DNA from: Candidatus Omnitrophota bacterium
GTDB taxonomy: Bacteria; Omnitrophota; Gorgyraeia; Tantalellales; Tantalellaceae
DNA length: 63,636 nt
Direction of reading: 5' to 3'
NCBI GenBank assembly: GCA_041667545.1
Contig: JBAYES010000005.1
Location: 1-63,636, forward strand
In this document: positions 9,764-63,053 of the stretch, one piece after another
How the letters are laid out: every line of letters starts with the position of its first letter
Position numbering within the stretch: the first letter of the stretch is position 1
The notes under the pieces: model-generated
Databases searched by the model: none
Told to the model about the DNA's origin: nothing
What the model saw: the letters and a program-made list of their open reading frames with translations, nothing else
Program-made: the position numbers and the translations under genes

Positions 9764-11653
9764 CTAATCATCGTTGATAAGAGGGTTAGCGGGAATAAGC
9801 CCGTTGTAATCGTCTATATTCCCGCCTTGCATGCAGCATTCAATGATCTTTTTGCCCCGCGGATCAATTTTTTCTTTGAGGAATTTTAACAGTTCCCGAT
9901 GAAAGAATTCAGTGAGGAGCGCGGCTCCCTTATCATACGCTTCTTCGCCGACTTCAGGCTGACGATCGACCCGGAGAAACCAGTCGCCGATCATTTGTCC
10001 TTCGATCATCATAGAGCGAACGGCGTAACCCAGAAGGGGACAGCGGGCCGGGACTAACTGCTCGCTGGGGAATTTTGCCATCCCCCTGCGGGCGAGATAT
10101 TCGCGGGCGATCCATTGGGGCATAAAACCAACTTCCCAGGCCCCAATATGCTGGTTGGGGCAGAGAATATAACGTGTGTCTGTATTGGAAATGAACTGGT
10201 CGAGCAAAAGATTCGCCTGTTCGATGAAAGAGCCGGGAGCGAACGGGCCGTAGGAGCCGACTCCCTCAGAGCTCATTCCTTGTGTCTGGATGATGCTGGG
10301 ATTGCCATACCCGCGAGGCGCGACAAGCCGCCACAGCCATGCCAGGGATGGCGGCAGAAATTGCAGCATTCCAAGTATGCCATAGGTGGGATTCTCTTTT
10401 GTAGAGGGCGGCGTTCGAACGCCAAAACTTCTTACATCAATAGTTGCCGGGCCGTTCAAAATATTCGGGACAACATCCCTTGGTATTATGACCCGAGGAT
10501 TGGGACAGGGGATACCCGGAGCATCTTCGACATGTTCCCAGATCAACGCGGTAGAGCCCGGAGCGGCATCAATATTTAAAAAAAGCAGAGGCCTTGAAGG
10601 ATGAGTTGTAATTTTCTCCAAATGAGGATCGGTGCCGTATTCTGTAATGTGGTTGACCCTGATAAACCAGGCGTCTTCGGCGTCGATCAGAGCCAGTTTC
10701 CCGTTTTTCTTCTGCAAAGAGGGAAGACATAAAGCCATGTCGTCATTAACGGGGCGTAATTCGCAGGCGCGGGGCAAAATGATATATCGCCTTTCTCCCG
10801 TGCTAAGATTTTTGCCCAAAAGAATGCTTCCGTCATGCTCGCGGTGGAGATTTTCCAGCATTTCGCTTTTTCCGCCGCCGCTCGCCCCTTCGTGCATAAT
10901 GGAGACTTTGTTGTCATAGGGAGTGATCACCTGCACCGTCGAACAATGGGCTGTCACCCAATTTTCCCGTTCACCCAGATTGATCAGCATGCCGTAAACA
11001 CCTTTTTTAGCGCTGGGGCCGGGATAAAGGTTATAACTGAACATCTCATACAAATTATTTAAACGGTTATGCACAACAACTTGTTTGCCTTCAAAATGAC
11101 TATGACGGAACGGAGGAGCGACATAGATGACGGCCTTCGGCTCAAAATTTTCCGGTAATTGGTCTGGATCAAGTATTCCCTGTAATAAGGCGAGTCCCAG
11201 CGCGAAAAAACCGGCATTGGAAGGCGCAACCACAACACTTTCAATACCATTCTCTTCAAAGCCGGCATTAAAGAAATATACGGATAGCTCTTGCGTTTTT
11301 AACCAATCAAACGTTTCCCGGCGAACTCGATGAAAATCGCTTTTAAAGCGCTCCTTGTATAGGCTTTTATTTGTTGGAAGTTCATCGGCTATCACCATGC
11401 ATTCAGGGTCTCTCCTGCGCATGTACGGCTCAACATAATTGGCGGCAATTCCGTTGCGTACCCGGCAAACACGGGCTTCGAGAACAGTTCCTTTACCCGG
11501 AACATCATAAGCCACATCATGCCATCCGTTCTTTTCGTCGCGACAGGCCAGATCTACGAGCATGTCCGCGCTGCTCGCGATGGTATAGGACGGGCAGTTG
11601 GACAAAACATCCGCCGCTTCCGGCGGTAACTTAAATTTATTCAGATCTTGCAT
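9764..11653 (-). CDS. Large P-loop protein, DUF4914-like (HprK/PEPCK-type GxSGxGKSE loop)
   Basis: 629-aa ORF. HEGASGGGKSEM resembles the HPr-kinase/PEPCK phosphate loop. The family name is from memory and not verified. Confidence 0.45.
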   Translation of the reverse strand: MQDLNKFKLPPEAADVLSNCPSYTIASSADMLVDLACRDEKNGWHDVAYDVPGKGTVLEARVCRVRNGIAANYVEPYMRRRDPECMVIADELPTNKSLYKERFKSDFHRVRRETFDWLKTQELSVYFFNAGFEENGIESVVVAPSNAGFFALGLALLQGILDPDQLPENFEPKAVIYVAPPFRHSHFEGKQVVVHNRLNNLYEMFSYNLYPGPSAKKGVYGMLINLGERENWVTAHCSTVQVITPYDNKVSIMHEGASGGGKSEMLENLHREHDGSILLGKNLSTGERRYIILPRACELRPVNDDMALCLPSLQKKNGKLALIDAEDAWFIRVNHITEYGTDPHLEKITTHPSRPLLFLNIDAAPGSTALIWEHVEDAPGIPCPNPRVIIPRDVVPNILNGPATIDVRSFGVRTPPSTKENPTYGILGMLQFLPPSLAWLWRLVAPRGYGNPSIIQTQGMSSEGVGSYGPFAPGSFIEQANLLLDQFISNTDTRYILCPNQHIGAWEVGFMPQWIAREYLARRGMAKFPSEQLVPARCPLLGYAVRSMMIEGQMIGDWFLRVDRQPEVGEEAYDKGAALLTEFFHRELLKFLKEKIDPRGKKIIECCMQGGNIDDYNGLIPANPLINDD

Positions 11654-11665
11654 AAGACTCTCCTT

Positions 11666-11909
11666 GTATCACCTCAGTTCTCCGCAGTAAATTCCCGCGC
11701 CGTCGTCACGAGGAGCCCCCGAAGGGGGCGACGAAGTGATCTCATAATATGAAAATATTTCAGAGAGGGATTGCTTCGGCCCTATGCCAAGTCTGCCGAA
11801 ATCCTGAGCCATAGCATTTATCACGATACGAAGGGCTTCACCCGCCTTCGGCGGGTTCGCAAAGACGGGCGTGGGTACGCTACATTTCCGCGGAAAACTG
11901 AAATGTTAC
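11666..11909. mobile_element. Type-A MITE-like element, full copy, with an 8-bp target-site duplication
   Basis: Ends are GTATCACCTCAGTT... (degenerate) and ...AACTGAAATGTTAC. Flanked by perfect CTCTCCTT at 11658-11665 and 11910-11917. No ORF. Internal hairpin modules are shared with the other copies. Confidence 0.85.
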
Positions 11910-12020
11910 CTCTCCTTAATTAATATCGACGCCACGCTTGACTTTCGGGCATTTGAAGTATATTATTGAACTAAGCATTTGTAAAATAGATAATGTATAT
12001 GCAAAACATTTAAAATATCT

Positions 12021-16310: not shown

Positions 16311-16691
16311 ATGGAACAATACATGCAATTATTCAGGGCCCTTTCGGACGCGACTCGACTCAGGATCATGGTTTTGCTTTCGGCGGGGGAAAGATGCGTT
16401 TGCCGGATAGAGGAGGCTTTGGATCTTTCGCAGACAAAGGTCTCGCGCCACCTCACGGTTTTAAGGCAAGCGGGCCTGGTAAATGTTAGAAGGGACGGAT
16501 TATGGATGTATTACTCGCTTGCGGGAGCAAAAAACCGTTTGGAAGAAAAGATCTTTACCTGTTTTAAAGAATATCTCCGGAAGGAAGAAGGGTTTAAAAA
16601 AGATCCGGGAAACATGAAAAAATGCGGTCCCAAAGACCCGTTGAGACCCGGGACTAAATCAAAGAAAAAGCGTCGCGGCAAAGGCAGATGA
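16311..16691 (+). CDS. arsR: ArsR/SmtB-family metalloregulator
   Basis: [47 protein letters not shown] (HTH with a CVC metal site). Start chosen at the ATG behind the RBS. Basic K/R-rich C-terminal tail. Confidence 0.85.
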
Positions 16692-17872
16692 AAATGGAAA
16701 AGATAATTTACGAAGAGAGAGATCTTGGTTTTTTCGAAAGATATCTGACCTTATGGGTTATTGCCTGTATCGGAGCGGGCATTTTTACAGGCAGGGTCGC
16801 TCCTGATCTGGCGGCATTTTTGGATTCCCTTGCGATCTATGCGGGCGGCGCTCCGGTTGTTTCTATCCCTATAGCGGTCTGTTTATTCTTTATGATGTAT
16901 CCTATCATGGTCAAGATAGATTTTGCCGAAGTGGTGAAGGCCGGAAAATCCCCAAAACCTGTAGGCCTGACATTGTTCGTGAACTGGGCGGTAAAGCCCT
17001 TTACGATGTATGCCGTCGCGTTCTTATTTCTGGGAGTTCTTTTCAGGGGATTTATAGGGGAGGAAGCGGTTGATCTTGTCAAATTACCTCCGGGATCCGC
17101 GGATTGGGCTATCGGATCTATCAGAGGGTCGGGTACGGTGGTTTTTCATGAAGGCATAAAAATGCTTCAAGTGCCTTTGTGGCGAAGTTATTTCGCGGGC
17201 GCCATTCTTCTGGGCATTGCTCCCTGTACCGCAATGGTGCTCGTATGGGGGTTTTTGTCGAAGGGGAACGACGGGCATACTCTTGTTATGGTGGCTATAA
17301 ATTCTTTGACCATGCTTTTGCTGTACGGGGTCTTGGGGGGATTCTTGCTGGGGGTCGGCCAGATGCCGGTGCCCTGGGAGGCGCTTTTATTGTCTATCGC
17401 GATCTATGTGGCTCTGCCTCTTGTTGCGGGATATTTTTCAAGAAGATGGATAATTTCGAGAAAGGGGCTAAGCTGGTTCAATGAAAAGTTCCTGCACCTT
17501 CTTTCCCCGGTATCGATAATAGCACTGCTTATTACTCTTGTTTTGCTGTTTTCTCTTAAAGGAGGAGTGATATTAGCTCAGCCGCTGACCATTCTTTGGA
17601 TAGCCGTTCCGCTGTTCATTCAGACCTGTTTCATTTTTGCCGTAACGTACTGGATGGCAAAAAAATTAAAGTTACGATATGAAGACGCCGCCCCATCGGC
17701 ATTGGTGGGAGCCAGTAATCATTTTGAGGTGGCGATAGCGACAGCCACAATGTTGTTCGGCCTTTCATCAGGCGCGGCATTAGCCACGGTAGTCGGAGTT
17801 CTAATAGAAGTCCCGGTAATGCTTATGCTTGTTAAAGTTTGCCTTAGGACAAAAAACTGGTTCGCGAACTAA
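16688..17872 (+). CDS. acr3: ACR3-family arsenite efflux permease
   Basis: 394-aa membrane protein with an ATGA overlap onto arsR. Motifs such as [10 protein letters not shown] and [11 protein letters not shown] are typical of ACR3. Confidence 0.85.
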
Positions 17873-17875
17873 TAT

Positions 17876-18090
17876 AGAGTTCTGCGAAATGCCTATTTCT
17901 CGTCATTGCGAGGGAGCGAAGCGACTGAAGCAACCTTATAACCTGTTATATTTATTGAGATTGATTCGGCCATCTACTAAGTCTGCCGAAATCCTGAGCC
18001 ATGGCATTTATAACAATACGAAGGGCTTTGTCACTCACTTCGTTCGTTCCTCGCAAAGACAGAATAAAAGTCTATTTTGCAGAATTCTCT
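17876..18090. mobile_element. Type-B MITE-like element between acr3 and arsC, with a 9-bp target-site duplication
   Basis: Inverted termini AGAGTTCTGCGAAAT / ATTTTGCAGAATTCTCT. Direct repeat AACTAATAT at 17867-17875 (contains the acr3 stop TAA) and 18091-18099. Confidence 0.85.
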
Positions 18091-18113
18091 AACTAATATC
18101 ATAAGGGGGAAAG

Positions 18114-18545
18114 GTGGAAAAAACAAAAATACTTTTCTTATGTACGGGCAATTCCTGCCGGAGCCAGATGGCGGAAGGCTGGGCAAGACATCTCAAGCCC
18201 GATACGGTTGAAGCTTATTCCGCCGGAATAGAAACACACGGGCTCAACCAACATGCCGTAAAAGTAATGAAAGAAGCCGGTGTTGATATATCCGGGTATA
18301 AAAGCAAGATGGCTTCGGAACTCAAAGACATTGAGTTCGACTATGTTGTCACGGTTTGCGGTCATGCCAATGAGACCTGTCCTTTCTTTCCGGGGAAAGC
18401 CAAAGTTGTTCATGTTGGATTTGATGATCCGCCAAAATTGGCGAAAGAGGCGAGGACGGAAGAAGAGGCGCTGGGGCACTATAGAAGGGTCCGGGATGAG
18501 ATAAAGGATTTTATAAAGAACGTTCCCGAAAATTTGAAAAAATAA
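18114..18545 (+). CDS. arsC: Arsenate reductase, LMW-PTPase (thioredoxin-coupled) type
   Basis: GTG start behind GGGGGAAAGG. The CTGNSCRSQMAEG P-loop is the hallmark of this family. Confidence 0.85.
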   Translation: MEKTKILFLCTGNSCRSQMAEGWARHLKPDTVEAYSAGIETHGLNQHAVKVMKEAGVDISGYKSKMASELKDIEFDYVVTVCGHANETCPFFPGKAKVVHVGFDDPPKLAKEARTEEEALGHYRRVRDEIKDFIKNVPENLKK

Positions 18546-18607: not shown

Positions 18608-18692
18608 GTAACATATTGTGGGTGCTTTCGTGGGTCGTTGCGAGGAGCCCCCTGTACCATATGGTAAAGGGCGACGAAGCAATCCCATCTCC
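18608..18692. repeat. Degenerate fragment of the type-A element (left arm)
   Basis: GTAACATATTGTG...CGTTGCGAGGAGCCCCCTGTACCATATGGTAAAGGGCGACGAAGCAATC is a diverged version of the left arm seen at 15915-15990. Confidence 0.55.
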
Positions 18693-24165: not shown

Positions 24166-24331
24166 AGAGTTCTGCAAAATGGACTTTTATAACGTCTTTG
24201 AGAGGAACGAACGAAGTGAGAGACGAATCGATCTCAACAAATATAACAAGTTATAAGATTGCTTCGGTCCCCTGTACCGTACGGTACAGGGTCCCTCGCA
24301 ACGACGTGAAAACGCTATTTCGCAGAACCCT
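24166..24331. mobile_element. Type-B MITE-like element between the fur-family gene and the DUF5320 gene
   Basis: Termini AGAGTTCTGCAAAAT / ATTTCGCAGAACCCT. Flanked by an imperfect direct repeat, AAAAATAAACGGAAA (24151-24165) and AAAAATAACGGAAA (24332-24345). Carries the TGTACCGTACGGTACA palindrome tip. Confidence 0.75.
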
Positions 24332-24780: not shown

Positions 24781-25176
24781 ATGAGAGTAGCGATATCTAC
24801 AGATGGCGGAAGTGTATCCGCGCACTTTGGCAGATGTCCCTTGTTCACGATAGTGGACATTGAGGACGGCAAAGTAGCCGGCAAGGATGTGGTAGAGAAC
24901 CCGGGTCATCATCCCGGATTTTTACCGAAATTCCTTCATGAAAAAGGAGTGAATTGTATTATTGCCGGAGGAATGGGGCAAAACGCCATCAGCTTGTTTT
25001 CACAGCAAAAAATCGAAACGGTGGTCGGGGTCGGCGGAAAGATAGATGATGTGGTAGAGAAGATCCTGAAGGGCACTCTTGTCGGCGGAGAAAGTTTATG
25101 TAAACCACGAAGCGGAAAAGGATACGGTCTGGATAAAACAGTGTGTGACCATTCTGAAAACGATCAAGGATTCTGA
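24781..25176 (+). CDS. NifB/NifX-family (dinitrogenase Fe-Mo cofactor-binding domain) protein
   Basis: MRVAISTDGGSVSAHFGRCPLFTIVDIEDGKV...GMG. The stop codon lies inside the left terminus of the MITE at 25167. Confidence 0.75.
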   Translation: MRVAISTDGGSVSAHFGRCPLFTIVDIEDGKVAGKDVVENPGHHPGFLPKFLHEKGVNCIIAGGMGQNAISLFSQQKIETVVGVGGKIDDVVEKILKGTLVGGESLCKPRSGKGYGLDKTVCDHSENDQGF

Positions 25177-25317
25177 AGAATGGATTTTTATTCCGTCGTT
25201 GCGAGGAACGAACGAAGTGAGTGACGAGGCAATCTCAACATACACAATAAGTCATGAGGTTGTGTCGGTCGCTTTGCTCCCTCGCAATGACGTGAATTTG
25301 CTATTTTTCAGAATTCT
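25167..25317. mobile_element. Type-B MITE-like element inserted in the last codons of the NifX-like gene
   Basis: Termini AGGATTCTGAAGAAT / ATTTTTCAGAATTCT. Direct repeat ATTCTGAAAACGATCA at 25151-25166 and 25313-25328. The right boundary is ambiguous by 5 nt because the flank resembles the terminus. Confidence 0.8.
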
Positions 25318-25346
25318 GAAAACGATCATTAAAGGAGGATAATAAG

Positions 25347-37937: not shown

Positions 37938-38777
37938 TTGAAAAAAGGAAGGACAGCGGTGAAGTTCAGAAGCTGGATGTCCCGGGAACCCCGAGGGGCT
38001 ATAGTCCTCATACATGGAATGGGCGCGGGCACGGAAAGGTGGGAAAGCCTCGCGCGGTATTTTCTGGCAAAGAATATCTCTTCCTATGCTCTTTCCCTTC
38101 AAGGTTTTGACGGGACTCCCGGCGAGAAAGGGTATGTGGATAGTTTTGAAACTTACCATGCCGATATAAAAGAACTTTTTGATGCCGCGAGGCGGGATGT
38201 TCCGGAAGGGCGCATATTTCTTCTCGGGGAAAGCATGGGAGCCGTTATTGCCTTTGATATCGCTTCCCGGCTTCGCTGTCATTTTGACGGATACATACTT
38301 ATTTCTCCGGCTTTCGGCAGTAAACTGAAGTTTTCCCCGATCACATATCTCGAGATCATGATATCTATGGCGGTTTTCCCCAGAAAACAGTTCCGCATGC
38401 CTTTTACCCCGCAAATGTGCACGAGCGACAGCGATGAATCTGATAAAATAAATAAGGATCCCGCGGAACACCGGTATGCCACCGGCCGTTTGCTTTGGGA
38501 AATATTCAAAAGACAGGTTACGGCCCCGATATCGGCGCGAAAAATAGATTCAAAGATTCTTTTTCTTTTATCCATGAACGATGAAATAGCCGACCCCAAA
38601 AAAAGCATTCAAATATTCAAGAAGATCAAAAGTGCCGATAAGACCATTAAGACGTATCCCGGAATGAGGCATGCCCTCTCGGTGGAAGCTGGCAGGGAAA
38701 AGGTTTTTGAGGACATATTAGAGTTCTGCGAAATGGACTTTTATTCCGTCGTTGCGAGGAACGAACGAAGTGAGTGA
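37938..38777 (+). CDS. Alpha/beta hydrolase (lysophospholipase / monoacylglycerol lipase-like) with a MITE-encoded C-terminal tail
   Basis: HGMGAG, nucleophile elbow GESMG, late HA. The last ~19 codons (...[19 protein letters not shown]) are read from the type-B element starting at 38719. Start codon uncertain (TTG at 37938, ATG at 37977). Confidence 0.7.
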   Translation: MKKGRTAVKFRSWMSREPRGAIVLIHGMGAGTERWESLARYFLAKNISSYALSLQGFDGTPGEKGYVDSFETYHADIKELFDAARRDVPEGRIFLLGESMGAVIAFDIASRLRCHFDGYILISPAFGSKLKFSPITYLEIMISMAVFPRKQFRMPFTPQMCTSDSDESDKINKDPAEHRYATGRLLWEIFKRQVTAPISARKIDSKILFLLSMNDEIADPKKSIQIFKKIKSADKTIKTYPGMRHALSVEAGREKVFEDILEFCEMDFYSVVARNERSE

Positions 38778-38871
38778 CGAAGTAATCTCAATAAATACAA
38801 TAAGTTATAAGGTTGCTTCGGTCGCTTCGCTTCCTCGCAATGACTTGCAAACTCTATTTCGCAGAACTCTA
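38719..38871. mobile_element. Type-B MITE-like element at the 3-prime end of the hydrolase gene
   Basis: Perfect symmetric termini TAGAGTTCTGCGAAAT / ATTTCGCAGAACTCTA. Only a degenerate flank similarity (TGAGGACATAT versus TGAGACGTATAT). Confidence 0.8.
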
Positions 38872-38926
38872 TGAGACGTATATGAGTGGAGGGAGTGGGG
38901 TAAGAGGTAAGGGGTAAGGGGGGAGT

Positions 38927-47310: not shown

Positions 47311-47384
47311 TAGAGTTCTGCGAAAGGAACTTTTATTCCGCCGTTCCTCGCAAAGACGTGAAATAGCTATTTTGCAGAACTCTA
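47311..47384. mobile_element. Minimal (74-bp) type-B MITE-like element in the leader of the GNAT-deacetylase gene
   Basis: TAGAGTTCTGCGAAA...TATTTTGCAGAACTCTA with a short core. Flanks are ACGTCCTGTT and ACGCCTTGTT (imperfect duplication). Confidence 0.75.
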
Positions 47385-49188: not shown

Positions 49189-49446
49189 CGGCGTCCCTCG
49201 GTAAGTGAGGTTAGAACCTCTCTGCGGGGATCATTGGTGGAACAAGTTGACTTTAGTGCTGTCCTGGGAAAATTTTAAATCCGTCATTGCGAGGGAGCGC
49301 CGCGACCGAAGCAATCTCTTTAAATGTTTGATTGTATTGCGGATTGCTTCGTATCTCACTTCGTTCGTCCCTCGCCTTCAGTCAGCTATGTTAAACAAAA
49401 GACCCTGCCTTTCGGGCAGGGCTTTTTGTTTAAATGGCGTGCCTGG
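49189..49446. repeat. Composite repeat unit 1: tRNA-end-like core, TIR-less MITE module, terminator hairpin, then a 12-nt copy of the tRNA-Arg 3-prime end
   Basis: 49379-49446 is about 90 percent identical to 51583-51650 (terminator plus TGGCGTGCCTGG). 49189-49220 is another tRNA-end-like core. The centre holds MITE-type modules (CGTCATTGCGAGGGAGCGCCGCGACCGAAGCAATC). Confidence 0.7.
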
Positions 49447-49604: not shown

Positions 49605-50924
49605 ATGAAAAGATTCATACAGAAAGAACTGAGTAAATGGAAAGATGATTCATCAAGGAAGATACTCCTAATAAGGGGGGCTCGCCAAGTTGGAAAAACG
49701 TACTCAATAAGACAGCTTGGTAGCACCTTTAAAAATTATATTGAAGTAAACTTTGAAGAAAACAAGGATATCAAACAGTTTTTTTCAGGATCTTTGAATC
49801 CTGATATTATCTGTAAAAAGATCTCGGCAGCTTTTTCCCTGCCTATTATCCCAGGAGAAACACTCCTTTTTTTCGATGAAATACAAGAATGCCCCGAGGC
49901 TTTAAGTGCGTTAAGATTTTTTTATGAAAAGTTACCGGATTTACATGTCATTGCCGCAGGTTCGCTTTTGGAGTTTGCTATAGAAAGTATTCCATCATAC
50001 GGTGTAGGAAGAATTCAATCACTCTTTATGTATCCAATGTCATTTGACGAATTTCTTATGGCAAATAACGAAGAAGGTCTGCTGGAGTTAAAGAATATTG
50101 CGGGCACAGGAAATCCGTTGGACAATCTTTTTCATCACAAGCTGGTTGACTACCTAAAAATGTTTTATTTAACCGGCGGCATGCCAGAATCAGTAAAAGA
50201 ATATTTACAAAGCGGTGATATCTTAAAGAGCCAGAAAGTTCTTGATGGTTTGATCGAAAGCATAAAGGATGATTTTGCGAAATATAAAAACCGCTCCCCA
50301 ATACAACGATTGGAGGAGGTATATGGCTCCATATCAATGCAATGCGGATCAAAATTCGTATATTCAAGGATTGATTCTTCATCTAGTCATGCACCATTAA
50401 AAGATGCTCTAGAATTGATAGTACAGGCGGGTTTAGCATACAAGGTATATCATACTTCATCAAGAGGTATCCCGTTGGGAGCACAGGTAAAAATTAAAAA
50501 GTTTAAAGTTATTCCCCATGATATTGGAATACACCAAAGGTTGCTTGGTTTGAACGCGGCTGATATTGTGAAAGCGGAAAATGTGACTGTAATAAACAAG
50601 GGGCATATAGCAGAAATTTTTGTCGGATTAGAACTCATAAAAAATACTTCTCCATATTCAAGAGCCACTCTTCATTATTGGCATAAGGAAAAAAGGGGAA
50701 GTAATGCAGAAGTTGACTATGTTATTCAAAGAGAAGGCGATATTGTGCCTATAGAGGTTAAATCCGGCACACAGGGAAAAATGCAAAGTATGCGCATTTT
50801 TATGGAAGAAAGAAAGTTGAAACACGGCATAAGAATATCTTTAGAGCCTTTTTCTTCATACGGAAATATTGAGGTGATCCCTCTGTACGCTATAAGCAAC
50901 ATTATCAAGGAGCGTGTGGCATGA
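49605..50924 (+). CDS. AAA-family ATPase with a DUF4143-type C-terminal domain
   Basis: GARQVGKT Walker A, LLFFDEIQ Walker B. 439-aa architecture typical of AAA_14/DUF4143 proteins. The gene is visibly more AT-rich than its surroundings. Confidence 0.75.
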   Translation: MKRFIQKELSKWKDDSSRKILLIRGARQVGKTYSIRQLGSTFKNYIEVNFEENKDIKQFFSGSLNPDIICKKISAAFSLPIIPGETLLFFDEIQECPEALSALRFFYEKLPDLHVIAAGSLLEFAIESIPSYGVGRIQSLFMYPMSFDEFLMANNEEGLLELKNIAGTGNPLDNLFHHKLVDYLKMFYLTGGMPESVKEYLQSGDILKSQKVLDGLIESIKDDFAKYKNRSPIQRLEEVYGSISMQCGSKFVYSRIDSSSSHAPLKDALELIVQAGLAYKVYHTSSRGIPLGAQVKIKKFKVIPHDIGIHQRLLGLNAADIVKAENVTVINKGHIAEIFVGLELIKNTSPYSRATLHYWHKEKRGSNAEVDYVIQREGDIVPIEVKSGTQGKMQSMRIFMEERKLKHGIRISLEPFSSYGNIEVIPLYAISNIIKERVA

Positions 50925-51461: not shown

Positions 51462-51650
51462 ATGGAGTGCCTGGCACTTCGGAAAATACGATCCTCCCTA
51501 TGGTCGGATCGCTTAACGTTTCCTCAGCATCAAATATTGCGGCCGCAATATTTGTCAGATTCGGAACTTCGTTCCTCTCCCGCAGTCAGCTATGTAAAAC
51601 AAAAAACCCTGCTTTTTGGGCAGGGCCTTTTGTTTAAATGGCGTGCCTGG
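51462..51650. repeat. Composite repeat unit 2 (counterpart of 49189-49446), running into the genuine tRNA-Arg 3-prime end
   Basis: TGGAGTGCCTGGCAC (51462-51476) mimics the tRNA end TGGCGTGCCTGGCAG. 51583-51650 is the direct repeat of 49379-49446. Confidence 0.65.
51595..51625 (-). terminator. Intrinsic terminator downstream of tRNA-Arg
   Basis: Stem CCCTGC / GCAGGG (51607-51612 / 51620-51625), followed on the minus strand by a T-rich run. Confidence 0.6.
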
Positions 51651-51715
51651 CAGGATTCGAACCTGCGACCAACTGCTTCGTAGGCAGCTACTCTATCCAG
51701 CTGAGCTACAGGCAC
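51639..51715 (-). tRNA. tRNA-Arg (anticodon ACG), CCA encoded
   Basis: Manual cloverleaf: GTGCCTG TA GCTC AGCTGGATA GAGT A GCTGC CTACGAA GCAGT TGGTC GCAGG TTCGAAT CCTGC CAGGCAC G CCA. 77 nt, all stems pair, close to E. coli tRNA-Arg(ACG). Confidence 0.95.
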
Positions 51716-52657: not shown

Positions 52658-53107
52658 ATGAACATACATGAAGAATACATGGCGCAGGCGCTACGGGAAG
52701 CTCAAAAGGCATATGAAAGCGATGAAGTTCCCGTAGGGGCGGTTATCGTGCGTGACGGGGAAATAATAGCCAGGGCGCATAATCAGATAAAACTTCTCAA
52801 GGACCCCACAGCGCATGCCGAGATGATCGCCATAACCCAGGCCGCGGCATATCTTGAAAATGAGAGATTGACAGGATGTGAGCTTTATGTCACGTTGGAA
52901 CCGTGTTCAATGTGCGTCGGAGCGGCTGTTCTGGCGCGGTTAAACAAAATAGTTTTCGGAACGACCGACCCCAAGACGGGAGCGTGCGGAAGCGTGGTGA
53001 GCCTCACTAAACCCGGATTATTTAACCATGACATAGAAGTCGCGGGCGGTGTTATGGAAGACGTCTGTTGTGATCTTATGCGCCGGTTTTTCGCGTCCAA
53101 AAGATAG
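52658..53107 (+). CDS. tadA: tRNA adenosine(34) deaminase
   Basis: EVPVGAVIV, HAEMIAI, LEPCSMCVGA; about 150 aa. The upstream in-frame GTG extension (52604) was rejected. Confidence 0.9.
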   Translation: MNIHEEYMAQALREAQKAYESDEVPVGAVIVRDGEIIARAHNQIKLLKDPTAHAEMIAITQAAAYLENERLTGCELYVTLEPCSMCVGAAVLARLNKIVFGTTDPKTGACGSVVSLTKPGLFNHDIEVAGGVMEDVCCDLMRRFFASKR

Positions 53108-53129
53108 AGAGGGGTTCCTTCGGCCCTGT

Positions 53130-53229
53130 GGGCCTCAGGATGACGGGGTGGAGTGGGCCTCAGGATAACCGGGTGGAGCGGGCCTCAGGATAACCGGGTG
53201 GAGCGGGCCTCAGGATGACTGGGGGGTCC
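53130..53229. repeat. Tandem repeat, 4 x 25 bp (GGGCCTCAGGATAACCGGGTGGAGC consensus)
   Basis: Units start at 53130, 53155, 53180 and 53205. The two middle units are identical and the outer two are slightly diverged. Lies between the convergent tadA and peptidase genes. Confidence 0.85.
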
Positions 53230-60645: not shown

Positions 60646-61278
60646 ATGGAAAAGGCGGACAACAGCATAATAAGGATAGCGGTACTCGTTTCGGGCAACG
60701 GAACGAATTTACAGGCTATAATAGACGCTCAGGCAAAGGATAGCCTGGGCCCCTGCGAGGTAAAACTTGTTATAAGTGATAACCCCGAAGCTCGCGCTTT
60801 GCGCCGCGCGCGGGAAGCCGGGATCCCGGTAAAGGTCGTTGAAAAAAAACAAGGTATGCCGCGGGAAGTATTTGACGGGCTTTTGAGGGAAGAGATAGTA
60901 AGGGAAAAAATAGATCTCATTGTTCTTGCCGGTTTCATGAGGGTTTTGGGGGAGAAATTCGTAAGGGAGTTCAAGGGCAGGATAATGAACATACATCCGG
61001 CCCTTCTTCCCTGTTTCAAAGGGACATCGGCTATAGAAGACGCGTTCAATTACGGGGTGAAGGTCACCGGAGTAACGGTTCATTTTGTGGACGAGGGTGT
61101 GGATTCGGGGCCCATAATAGCCCAGAGAGAGGTGAGAATAGAAAAGTCTGATACTATCGGGACCCTTGAAGAAAAGATACACAGGACAGAACATGAGCTT
61201 TACCCCGAGGCGATACGGTATTTTGCCGAAGGAAAGCTCAAAATAGAAGGAAGAAAAGTAAAGGTCATTTCAAAAAAA

Positions 61279-61281
<3 letters not shown>
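60646..61281 (+). CDS. purN: Phosphoribosylglycinamide formyltransferase
   Basis: IAVLVSGNGTNLQAII, AGFMRVL and NIHPALLP motifs. The stop codon TAG (61279-61281) is the first three bases of the MITE terminus. Confidence 0.9.

Positions 61282-63053
<1,772 letters not shown>

Follow-up and report, generated by a model that had tools for sequence, protein, structure and literature searches.

At issue in this locus is why a small repeated element sits exactly where one gene stops and the ribosome-binding site (RBS) of the next begins, and whether it has rewritten the end of the upstream gene. In the window, by which we mean the whole stretch of 63,636 nucleotides that was analysed (contig C5 of the source assembly), two NifX-like genes (Nitro_FeMo-Co, Pfam) lie in tandem, and the first of them (24781–25176, plus strand) now ends in ..SENDQGF*, its final three codons and TGA stop being contained in a 151-nt element (25167–25317; positions of elements and their flanks are given without strand throughout). 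The element has diverged termini (AGGATTCTGAAGAATGG / ..CAGAATTCT), folds into a rod (−71.4 kcal/mol, z −11) and is flanked by a direct duplication of GAAAACGATCA (left, 25156–25166; right, 25318–25328). Downstream of it the old signals survive as a relic TAA (25330–25332) and the AGGAGG (25333–25338) of the second NifX-like gene (together 25330–25338, plus strand; ATG 25347), with GGAG starting 5 nt past the duplication. An earlier sequence-only reading had noted both the ..SENDQGF* end, with its stop inside the element, and an empty site reading ..SENDH* followed by AGGAGG. Direct reading of the site confirmed the former, and the latter is sound, as orthologous pairs show a stop and AGGAGG; the 16-nt flank repeat proposed there was too long, the extra ATTCT being the element's own end. 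The pair is conserved in relatives, where the stop of the first gene abuts the RBS of the second. The first gene ends in ..DH* taa AGGAGG in two genera and in ..DHSENDHLNRR* in a congener, and no 150-nt insert was present at the pair in any relative recovered.

Three further gene junctions of the window had been read in the same way. Between purN (Formyl_trans_N, Pfam; 60646–61281, plus strand) and eno lies a 215-nt element with an extra inner module (61279–61493), bordered by a duplication of TCAAAAAAA (61270–61278 and 61494–61502). The first 3 nt of this element supply the purN stop TAG, as had been stated, and eno follows with AGGAGG at 61508–61513 and ATG at 61519 (61508–61521, plus strand), GGAG starting 6 nt past the right duplication. 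In the reconstructed empty site the purN ORF does run on and overlap the eno start, in agreement with orthologous loci, by 8 codons rather than the approximately 9 proposed, a length that depends on that of a poly-A run; in relatives the purN–eno junction consists of a stop, 9–25 nt, AGGAGG and ATG. The element between acr3 and arsC (17876–18090, 215 nt) is flanked by AACTAATAT (17867–17875 and 18091–18099). The acr3 gene (SBF family, Pfam; 16688–17872, plus strand) has its stop TAA (17870–17872) within this duplication, as claimed, so that the protein is unchanged, and arsC (LMWPc, Pfam) has the SD-like run AAGGGGGA and a GTG start at 18114 (18103–18116, plus strand). The reconstruction of this site agrees with the orthologous loci, in which the two genes overlap or are separated by an unrelated spacer, although the 15 nt given for the empty site needs correcting: the G-run begins 7 nt, and GTG 17 nt, after the stop. 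Of three further copies that had been placed in leaders, two belong to the same family: one ahead of a DUF5320 gene (24166–24331; ATG 24362), with a decayed 14–15-nt flank repeat followed by aata and AGGAGG, and a minimal 74-nt copy ahead of a GNAT/deacetylase gene (47311–47384; ATG 47412), with a decayed repeat of 10 nt, then aaga and AGGAGG. The third, at 11666, has an 8-bp duplication and belongs to a different family.

The fourth junction differs in kind. A 153-nt element with near-perfect termini TAGAGTTCTGCGAAATGG (38719–38871; fold −72.2 kcal/mol, z −11) lies at the end of an alpha/beta hydrolase gene (Hydrolase_4, Pfam; 37938–38777, plus strand), which is followed downstream by an FGGY kinase gene (Pfam). 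After ..EDIL the last 18 codons and the stop of the hydrolase are encoded by the element, which bears out the proposed element-encoded tail apart from its length of about 19 codons. Just past the element, the frame GAG TGG AGG GAG TGG GGT AAG AGG TAA encodes EWREWGKR* (38884–38910, plus strand). Hydrolases of relatives continue past ..EDIL as ..EDI[LY]EW plus 5–15 residues, e.g. ..EDIYEWGQKLEGRK and ..EDILEWIRDRV, and EWREWGKR*, which is close to the tails of congeners, appears to be the original tail of the hydrolase, severed by the element. Since this relic is in frame and relatives carry such tails, the copy was inserted approximately 9 codons upstream of the old stop and replaced the tail; the part of the claim that placed the insertion on the stop codon does not stand. 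The decayed right duplication (38873–38883) is followed after 4 nt by an in-gene GGAGG (38888–38892, codons TGG-AGG), and the true glpK RBS lies 30 nt beyond it. This arrangement fits an off-target event at an SD-like GGAGG within a coding sequence.

We recovered orthologous loci of the four sites from up to 30 related genomes, including genomes of the same genus, and the insert was absent at all four in every locus recovered. The present gene ends are therefore derived: the anatomy of the sites and their empty orthologues confirm that these are MITE insertions, the empty-site reconstructions at the NifX-like, purN and acr3 junctions agree with the relatives, and the present C-termini are not ancestral. 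Extended to the 49 copies of the family analysed across the genome, the duplication touches the 3' end of the upstream gene in 16 and the protein is altered in six. In ten of the 16 the protein is unchanged, either because the stop lies in the duplication (acr3) or because it is re-made over the junction by the first bases of the element. Four proteins, PurN among them, are shortened by 4–8 residues, and in each of these the old ORF crossed the RBS of the next gene; one exchanges H for QGF (NifX) and one 9 residues for 18 (the hydrolase). Gene-end rewriting is a by-product of the insertion site. Annotators should bear in mind that where orthologues in such genomes differ over a few C-terminal residues, the difference can be a scar left by a transposon (6/49 here).

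The source assembly comprises 2.0 Mb on 92 contigs with 46% G+C, and ~89% of the genome is coding according to dicodon-model gene calls on the reconstructed empty-site genome. BLAST of the window copies against the whole assembly returned ~175 repeat regions, amounting to 1.6% of the genome, which sort into two MITE families with inner hairpin modules common to both. Family 1, to which the four junction copies belong, carries the terminal inverted repeat (T)AGRGTTCTGCAAAATRG at both ends in 49 paired copies, i.e. (T)AGRGTTCTGCAAAATRG ... CYATTTTGCAGAACYCT(A); together with the diverged copy in the NifX-like pair, further pairs whose termini are weaker, and single ends located at contig edges, it numbers ~60. 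Forms of 151, 200 and 213 nt occur, copy sizes span 72–350 nt, and the target-site duplications are unrelated sequences of 9–12 bp (up to 15 where the flank chances to extend the match), confidently identified in 31 copies of this genome. Family-1 elements are classical, non-autonomous MITEs, with inverted termini, unrelated duplications, small multicopy bodies without a transposase of their own, filled and empty sites, and an autonomous element of the same termini in other samples and genomes. Many contigs start or stop within a family-1 copy (C27:132, C47:80, C58:210, C81:42, C35:21631, C27:26334), and because MAG assemblies break at repeats the census is incomplete and the copy number underestimated. 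Some copies form pairs 10–12 nt, i.e. one duplication length, apart (C9:43945/43958, C17:15843/15856, C13:16098/16111, C54:12005/12018, C45:14562/14573), which is expected from repeated hits on one preferred site; the spacer ATTTAGAGGGAT is common to three of these tandem pairs, so that a composite of two copies has been copied as a unit. In family 2 the termini are GTAACATTTCAGTT.. and the duplications measure 8 bp. Its copy in the window (11666–11909; termini GTAACATTTCAGTT.., duplication CTCTCCTT) lies outside the SD-targeting family and serves as an internal control. Here CTCTCCTT is the reverse complement of the AAGGAGAG RBS of a minus-strand gene (9764–11653; window 11658–11917); that RBS has thus been duplicated and the element lies 4 nt from the ATG, a one-off for family 2.

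The window holds other repeats as well. Stand-alone CGTC...GCGAGG hairpin modules without the termini of either family occur at 18634–18688 and 49282–49375; such modules are also cargo inside both MITE families and are present in many related genomes. A 25-nt unit (GGGCCTCAGGATAACCGGGTGGAGC) occurs four to five times in tandem at 53105–53229, between a MafB19-like deaminase gene (52658–53107) and a minus-strand unannotated gene of 295 aa. A direct repeat of 83 nt (89% identity; 49364–49446 and 51568–51650) brackets ~2.2 kb with an AAA_14/DUF4143 ATPase gene (49605–50924), and its second copy overlaps the end of a minus-strand tRNA gene (51642–51715); the bracketed segment looks like a small element integrated at the tRNA.

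Across the genome, the position of family-1 copies is set by the next gene. Each paired copy together with one duplication was excised from the assembly, genes were then called with the dicodon model and each site was placed; gene starts were taken from a simple gene caller of our own, and the motif test is independent of these start calls. The typical site consists of the duplication, 4–6 mostly A residues, GGAGG or a close variant, and a start codon 14–19 nt from the duplication edge, with the logo [TSD] aAaAAaGGaGg and A/T-rich duplications. A GGAG/GAGG core lies 2–9 nt (mode 6) from the duplication edge in 24 of the 31 copies with confident duplications, against a null of 11.6% (the share of all positions in intergenic DNA and in the final 30 nt of genes; P 4e-17, binomial). 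The register is 4–6 nt in 20 of the 31, and the motif is missing in seven. It is also found ahead of genes with 100–650 nt of upstream spacer: among reconstructed spacers of at least 100 nt, 7/9 sites are in register (null 10%, P 3e-6). One copy (C17:30972) adjoins an SD-like motif without a called gene. None of 11 family-2 MITEs, of similar size and in the same genome, is in register; they lie 60–480 nt from starts. Intergenic spacers in this genome are short (median 56 nt; 776/1312 below 80 nt), and 35 of the 49 family-1 sites lie in spacers below 80 nt or at gene edges, versus 4/33 for family 2. If each RBS is a target, overlap with stop codons follows from spacers this short and looks like a preference for them. 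The sequence-only reading was thus right that placement at gene junctions is non-random, and wrong in ascribing it to AT-rich stop/RBS junctions: what determines insertion is the sequence flanking, on its 5' side, the Shine-Dalgarno (SD) motif of the downstream gene, and the stop codon is not what the sites have in common.

Such a pattern could also arise if insertion were near-random or merely AT-directed and purifying selection in a compact genome left only copies at the stop/RBS junction. The ~89% coding density, the 56-nt median spacer and the A/T-rich duplications agree with this, and very short spacers impose the register in part. Selection must indeed contribute, since insertions beside a GGAGG within genes would be lost. 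Nevertheless, the 4–6-nt register persists in spacers of 100–650 nt (7/9), family-2 MITEs lie far from RBSs in these spacers and are tolerated there (0/11 in register), a GGAGG within the hydrolase gene that is no RBS shows the register as well, and the register is repeated in other phyla and in full-length insertion sequences (see below). Selection alone cannot yield a register in long spacers where elements of similar size from family 2 are tolerated elsewhere, and we regard a selective filter by itself as an unlikely explanation of the placement.

A scan for the 18-nt terminus covered one genome per species and metagenome contigs. A genome of another Omnitrophota genus in the same taxonomic family as the source has copies of 151 and 171 nt, five of six of which show a duplication, 4–6 nt and an SD-like motif (GGAGG, AGGAG or GGGGG). 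MAGs that bear the labels Nitrospira/Nitrospirota, KSB1, Verrucomicrobiota, Planctomycetia or Calditrichia hold MITEs of 130–230 nt with the same terminus, and the metagenome contigs yielded further copies. Among 56 distinct copies outside the source sample, 43 are bordered by a clear duplication, most often of 10 bp, and in 35 of these 43 an SD core lies 2–9 nt away (mode 6). The exact terminus is patchy in Omnitrophota (5/251 genomes sampled), with by far the most copies in the source genome (43 exact termini), in which family 1 is expanded. Matches in many mitis-group Streptococcus genomes (L058-L132) were rejected as elements, since they share one conserved context, always lie beside the same ORFs and lack a second terminus; they look like a chance match in conserved DNA.

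The same termini also delimit full-length elements of 1.60–1.63 kb on metagenome contigs (L169:473-2101 and L172:36-1644; also L194, L206, L222 and L274), each with a single ORF of 431–439 aa containing DUF772 and DDE_Tnp_1 domains. The L169 element has an 11-bp duplication and adjoins CCTCC, and four to five of the six copies are in SD register by our reading of the flanks, so that the SD preference belongs to the insertion sequence (IS) as well as to the MITEs. The best curated model for their transposase is IS1182 (NF033551), at 91–93 bits against a cut-off of 270, so that by this curated model it is not a member. In domain content, single ORF and size of ~1.6 kb it resembles the IS1182/IS5 group, and the elements would represent an unnamed IS1182/IS5-like group. 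We found 886 homologues of the transposase (E <= 1e-10), mostly on metagenome contigs of ~1.6 kb, with source labels that include Omnitrophota, Kiritimatiellia, Brocadiales, Patescibacteria and Auribacterota, and two genomes of the same taxonomic family as the source carry copies with 71–72% identity. The source assembly itself has no homologue of the transposase and no long-range terminus pairs, none was present in five MITE-bearing MAGs, and searches of a plasmid collection with the terminus and of viral contigs for the partner returned nothing relevant. The assembly's only PF01609 (DDE_Tnp_1) match, at C13:4359-5513, was rejected as a partner, being IS5-like and unrelated to either MITE family; this element measures ~1.15 kb, has the termini CGAATGGCTTTGTTGCATAAAT and contains two ORFs, of 139 and 225 aa, that overlap. 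ORFs beside lone termini in other genomes were likewise rejected, as they are ordinary genes (histidine kinase, HlyD, FAD oxidoreductase, CinA, SpoIID). Judged by shared termini, duplication length and target context, the 1.6-kb element is a candidate partner of family 1.

These full-length relatives also bear on whether the copies moved by transposition at all. Had the copies instead spread among RBS-proximal sequences that resemble one another, through recombination or gene conversion and with the flank repeats as microhomologies, this might explain decayed or odd repeats such as those at the hydrolase, 24166 and 47311. Such a spread does not sit well with unrelated duplications of a consistent 9–12 bp, found immediately next to conserved inverted termini in over 70 independent copies, or with the same termini on full-length elements that encode a DDE transposase, and we consider it extremely unlikely.

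The best explanation, and in our view a very probable one, is that a single MITE family derived from a ~1.6-kb DDE insertion sequence cuts upstream of the SD motif and so lands between cistrons. Family-1 MITEs would be non-autonomous derivatives of an IS with a DUF772 + DDE_Tnp_1 transposase of ~435 aa. The transpososome would capture its target via a polypurine A-tract–GGAGG ~5 bp outside a staggered cut of ~10 bp, such that the gene-proximal edge of the cut falls 4–6 bp upstream of a GGAGG-type SD motif behind an A-rich stretch, and the element would be accepted in either orientation. Every gene would then offer a site, and as genes are mostly a few dozen bases apart, insertions would be mostly intercistronic. 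An upstream ORF that extends to the downstream RBS or across it would have its stop or last codons included in the duplication. A stop that is duplicated, or restored by the terminal T|AG of the element, would leave the protein the same; otherwise its tail would be truncated or element-encoded. The downstream RBS and start remain intact, ~15 nt from the base of the hairpin, which is probably why insertions are tolerated, and we infer that they are near-neutral. The transposase itself may read the SD motif. More broadly, it is probable that in Omnitrophota and in the MAG lineages named above for the MITEs a widespread, unnamed DDE IS/MITE group is guided to its insertion sites by the SD motif and cuts ~5 bp upstream of GGAGG.

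The position of long hairpins between cistrons had also suggested regulatory roles. The hairpins are there: full-size family-1 copies are predicted to fold into stable rods of −58 to −94 kcal/mol (−26 for the minimal 74-nt copy), with z-scores of −3.4 to −11 against dinucleotide shuffles. Copies could thus be kept as attenuators, RNase III sites or stabilisers, their placement reflecting function, and very stable predicted rods between co-transcribed genes as well as precedents in the literature (BIME, Correia, ERIC; PMC3049150 background; PMC3184786) speak for this. Several observations speak against it. Orientation relative to the gene is unbiased (21:21). No terminator- or promoter-like consensus was found inside the copies scanned, and an identity as intrinsic terminator or attenuator was rejected for 17876–18090, 24166–24331 and 25167–25317, which were covered by the terminator check and lack a G+C-rich hairpin with a T-run. 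Nor is the hairpin predicted to occlude the RBS: the downstream RBS window is unpaired with a predicted probability of 0.535 in filled and 0.494 in empty sites (20 loci, Wilcoxon P 0.13), i.e. no change is predicted. The sites are empty in congeners, so that the insertions are recent and lineage-specific, and the host genes are functionally unrelated. We therefore consider adaptive hairpins very unlikely as the reason for the placement. As for catalogued RNA families, Rfam gave no match to the MITEs at gathering score, the window's only match being the tRNA at 51642–51715.

Targeting of the SD flank would have consequences beyond this locus. If the transposase reads the motif, this would explain how an element multiplies inside a 2-Mb genome that is 89% coding, the landing places of new copies would be predictable, and there would be a natural way of inserting DNA between cistrons with both genes still translatable. 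If the SD-landing group is real, it would have thousands of safe sites per genome and could colonise the interiors of operons without killing either neighbour.

Several known repeat families were compared with family 1. An identity with Correia or IS630-type MITEs was rejected, as family-1 duplications are 9–12 bp and not TA. RUP elements have an IS630-type TA target. REP/REPIN elements, which have no target duplication and depend on a Y1 RAYT, were rejected on the grounds of the 9–12-bp duplications and the DDE full-length relatives; the inner CGTC-type hairpin modules of family 1 resemble REPs but are cargo. Correia (NEMIS/CREE; Neisseria) and ERIC/YPAL (enterobacteria) are like family 1 in being long-hairpin MITEs that are co-transcribed and sometimes fused to ORF ends (PMC3184786). 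Correia elements have a TA duplication, promoters and an IHF site, whereas family 1 has a duplication of ~10 bp and no promoter or terminator consensus was found in the copies scanned; ERIC effects depend on orientation, whereas family-1 orientation is unbiased. BOX, RUP and SPRITE share with family 1 that they are small, non-autonomous hairpin repeats in operons with a gene-end effect, but have no terminal-repeat/duplication relationship to it and no fixed register to the downstream RBS has been reported for them (PMC3049150). In 36 cases pneumococcal BOX elements overlap the extreme 3' end of a gene and encode its stop codon (Croucher et al. 2011, PMC3049150), and in-frame fusions of repeats to ORFs have been reviewed (PMC3184786), which makes the gene-end effect of family 1 ordinary. 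Nezha of Anabaena/Nostoc (Zhou et al. 2008), with ISNpu3 as its proposed partner, is similar in its inverted termini, direct repeats, stable fold, filled and empty sites and a partner IS found only in other organisms (PMC3184786); unlike family 1, no SD register is part of the review's descriptions of it, a comparison that is one of descriptions and not of sequences.

A fixed SD register is absent from PMC3049150, PMC3184786 and the 2024 review of prokaryotic MITEs (PMC10969869), in which the words ribosome and RBS do not occur, and a limited check of the open-access literature yielded no description of transposon target specificity for the SD motif. Operon-borne MITEs that trim the ends of genes are familiar; the RBS as a transposon address is apparently undescribed in the literature searched. 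Its logic has parallels in elements that home to landmarks. Class C group II introns insert after terminators, and Tn7 inserts at attTn7. IS1397 and ISKpn1 home into REP sequences (PMC3184786). Family 1 shares with these elements the use of a short, repeated and harmless non-coding landmark, which in its case is the 5' flank of the SD motif, unlike the REP, terminator or attTn7 targets.
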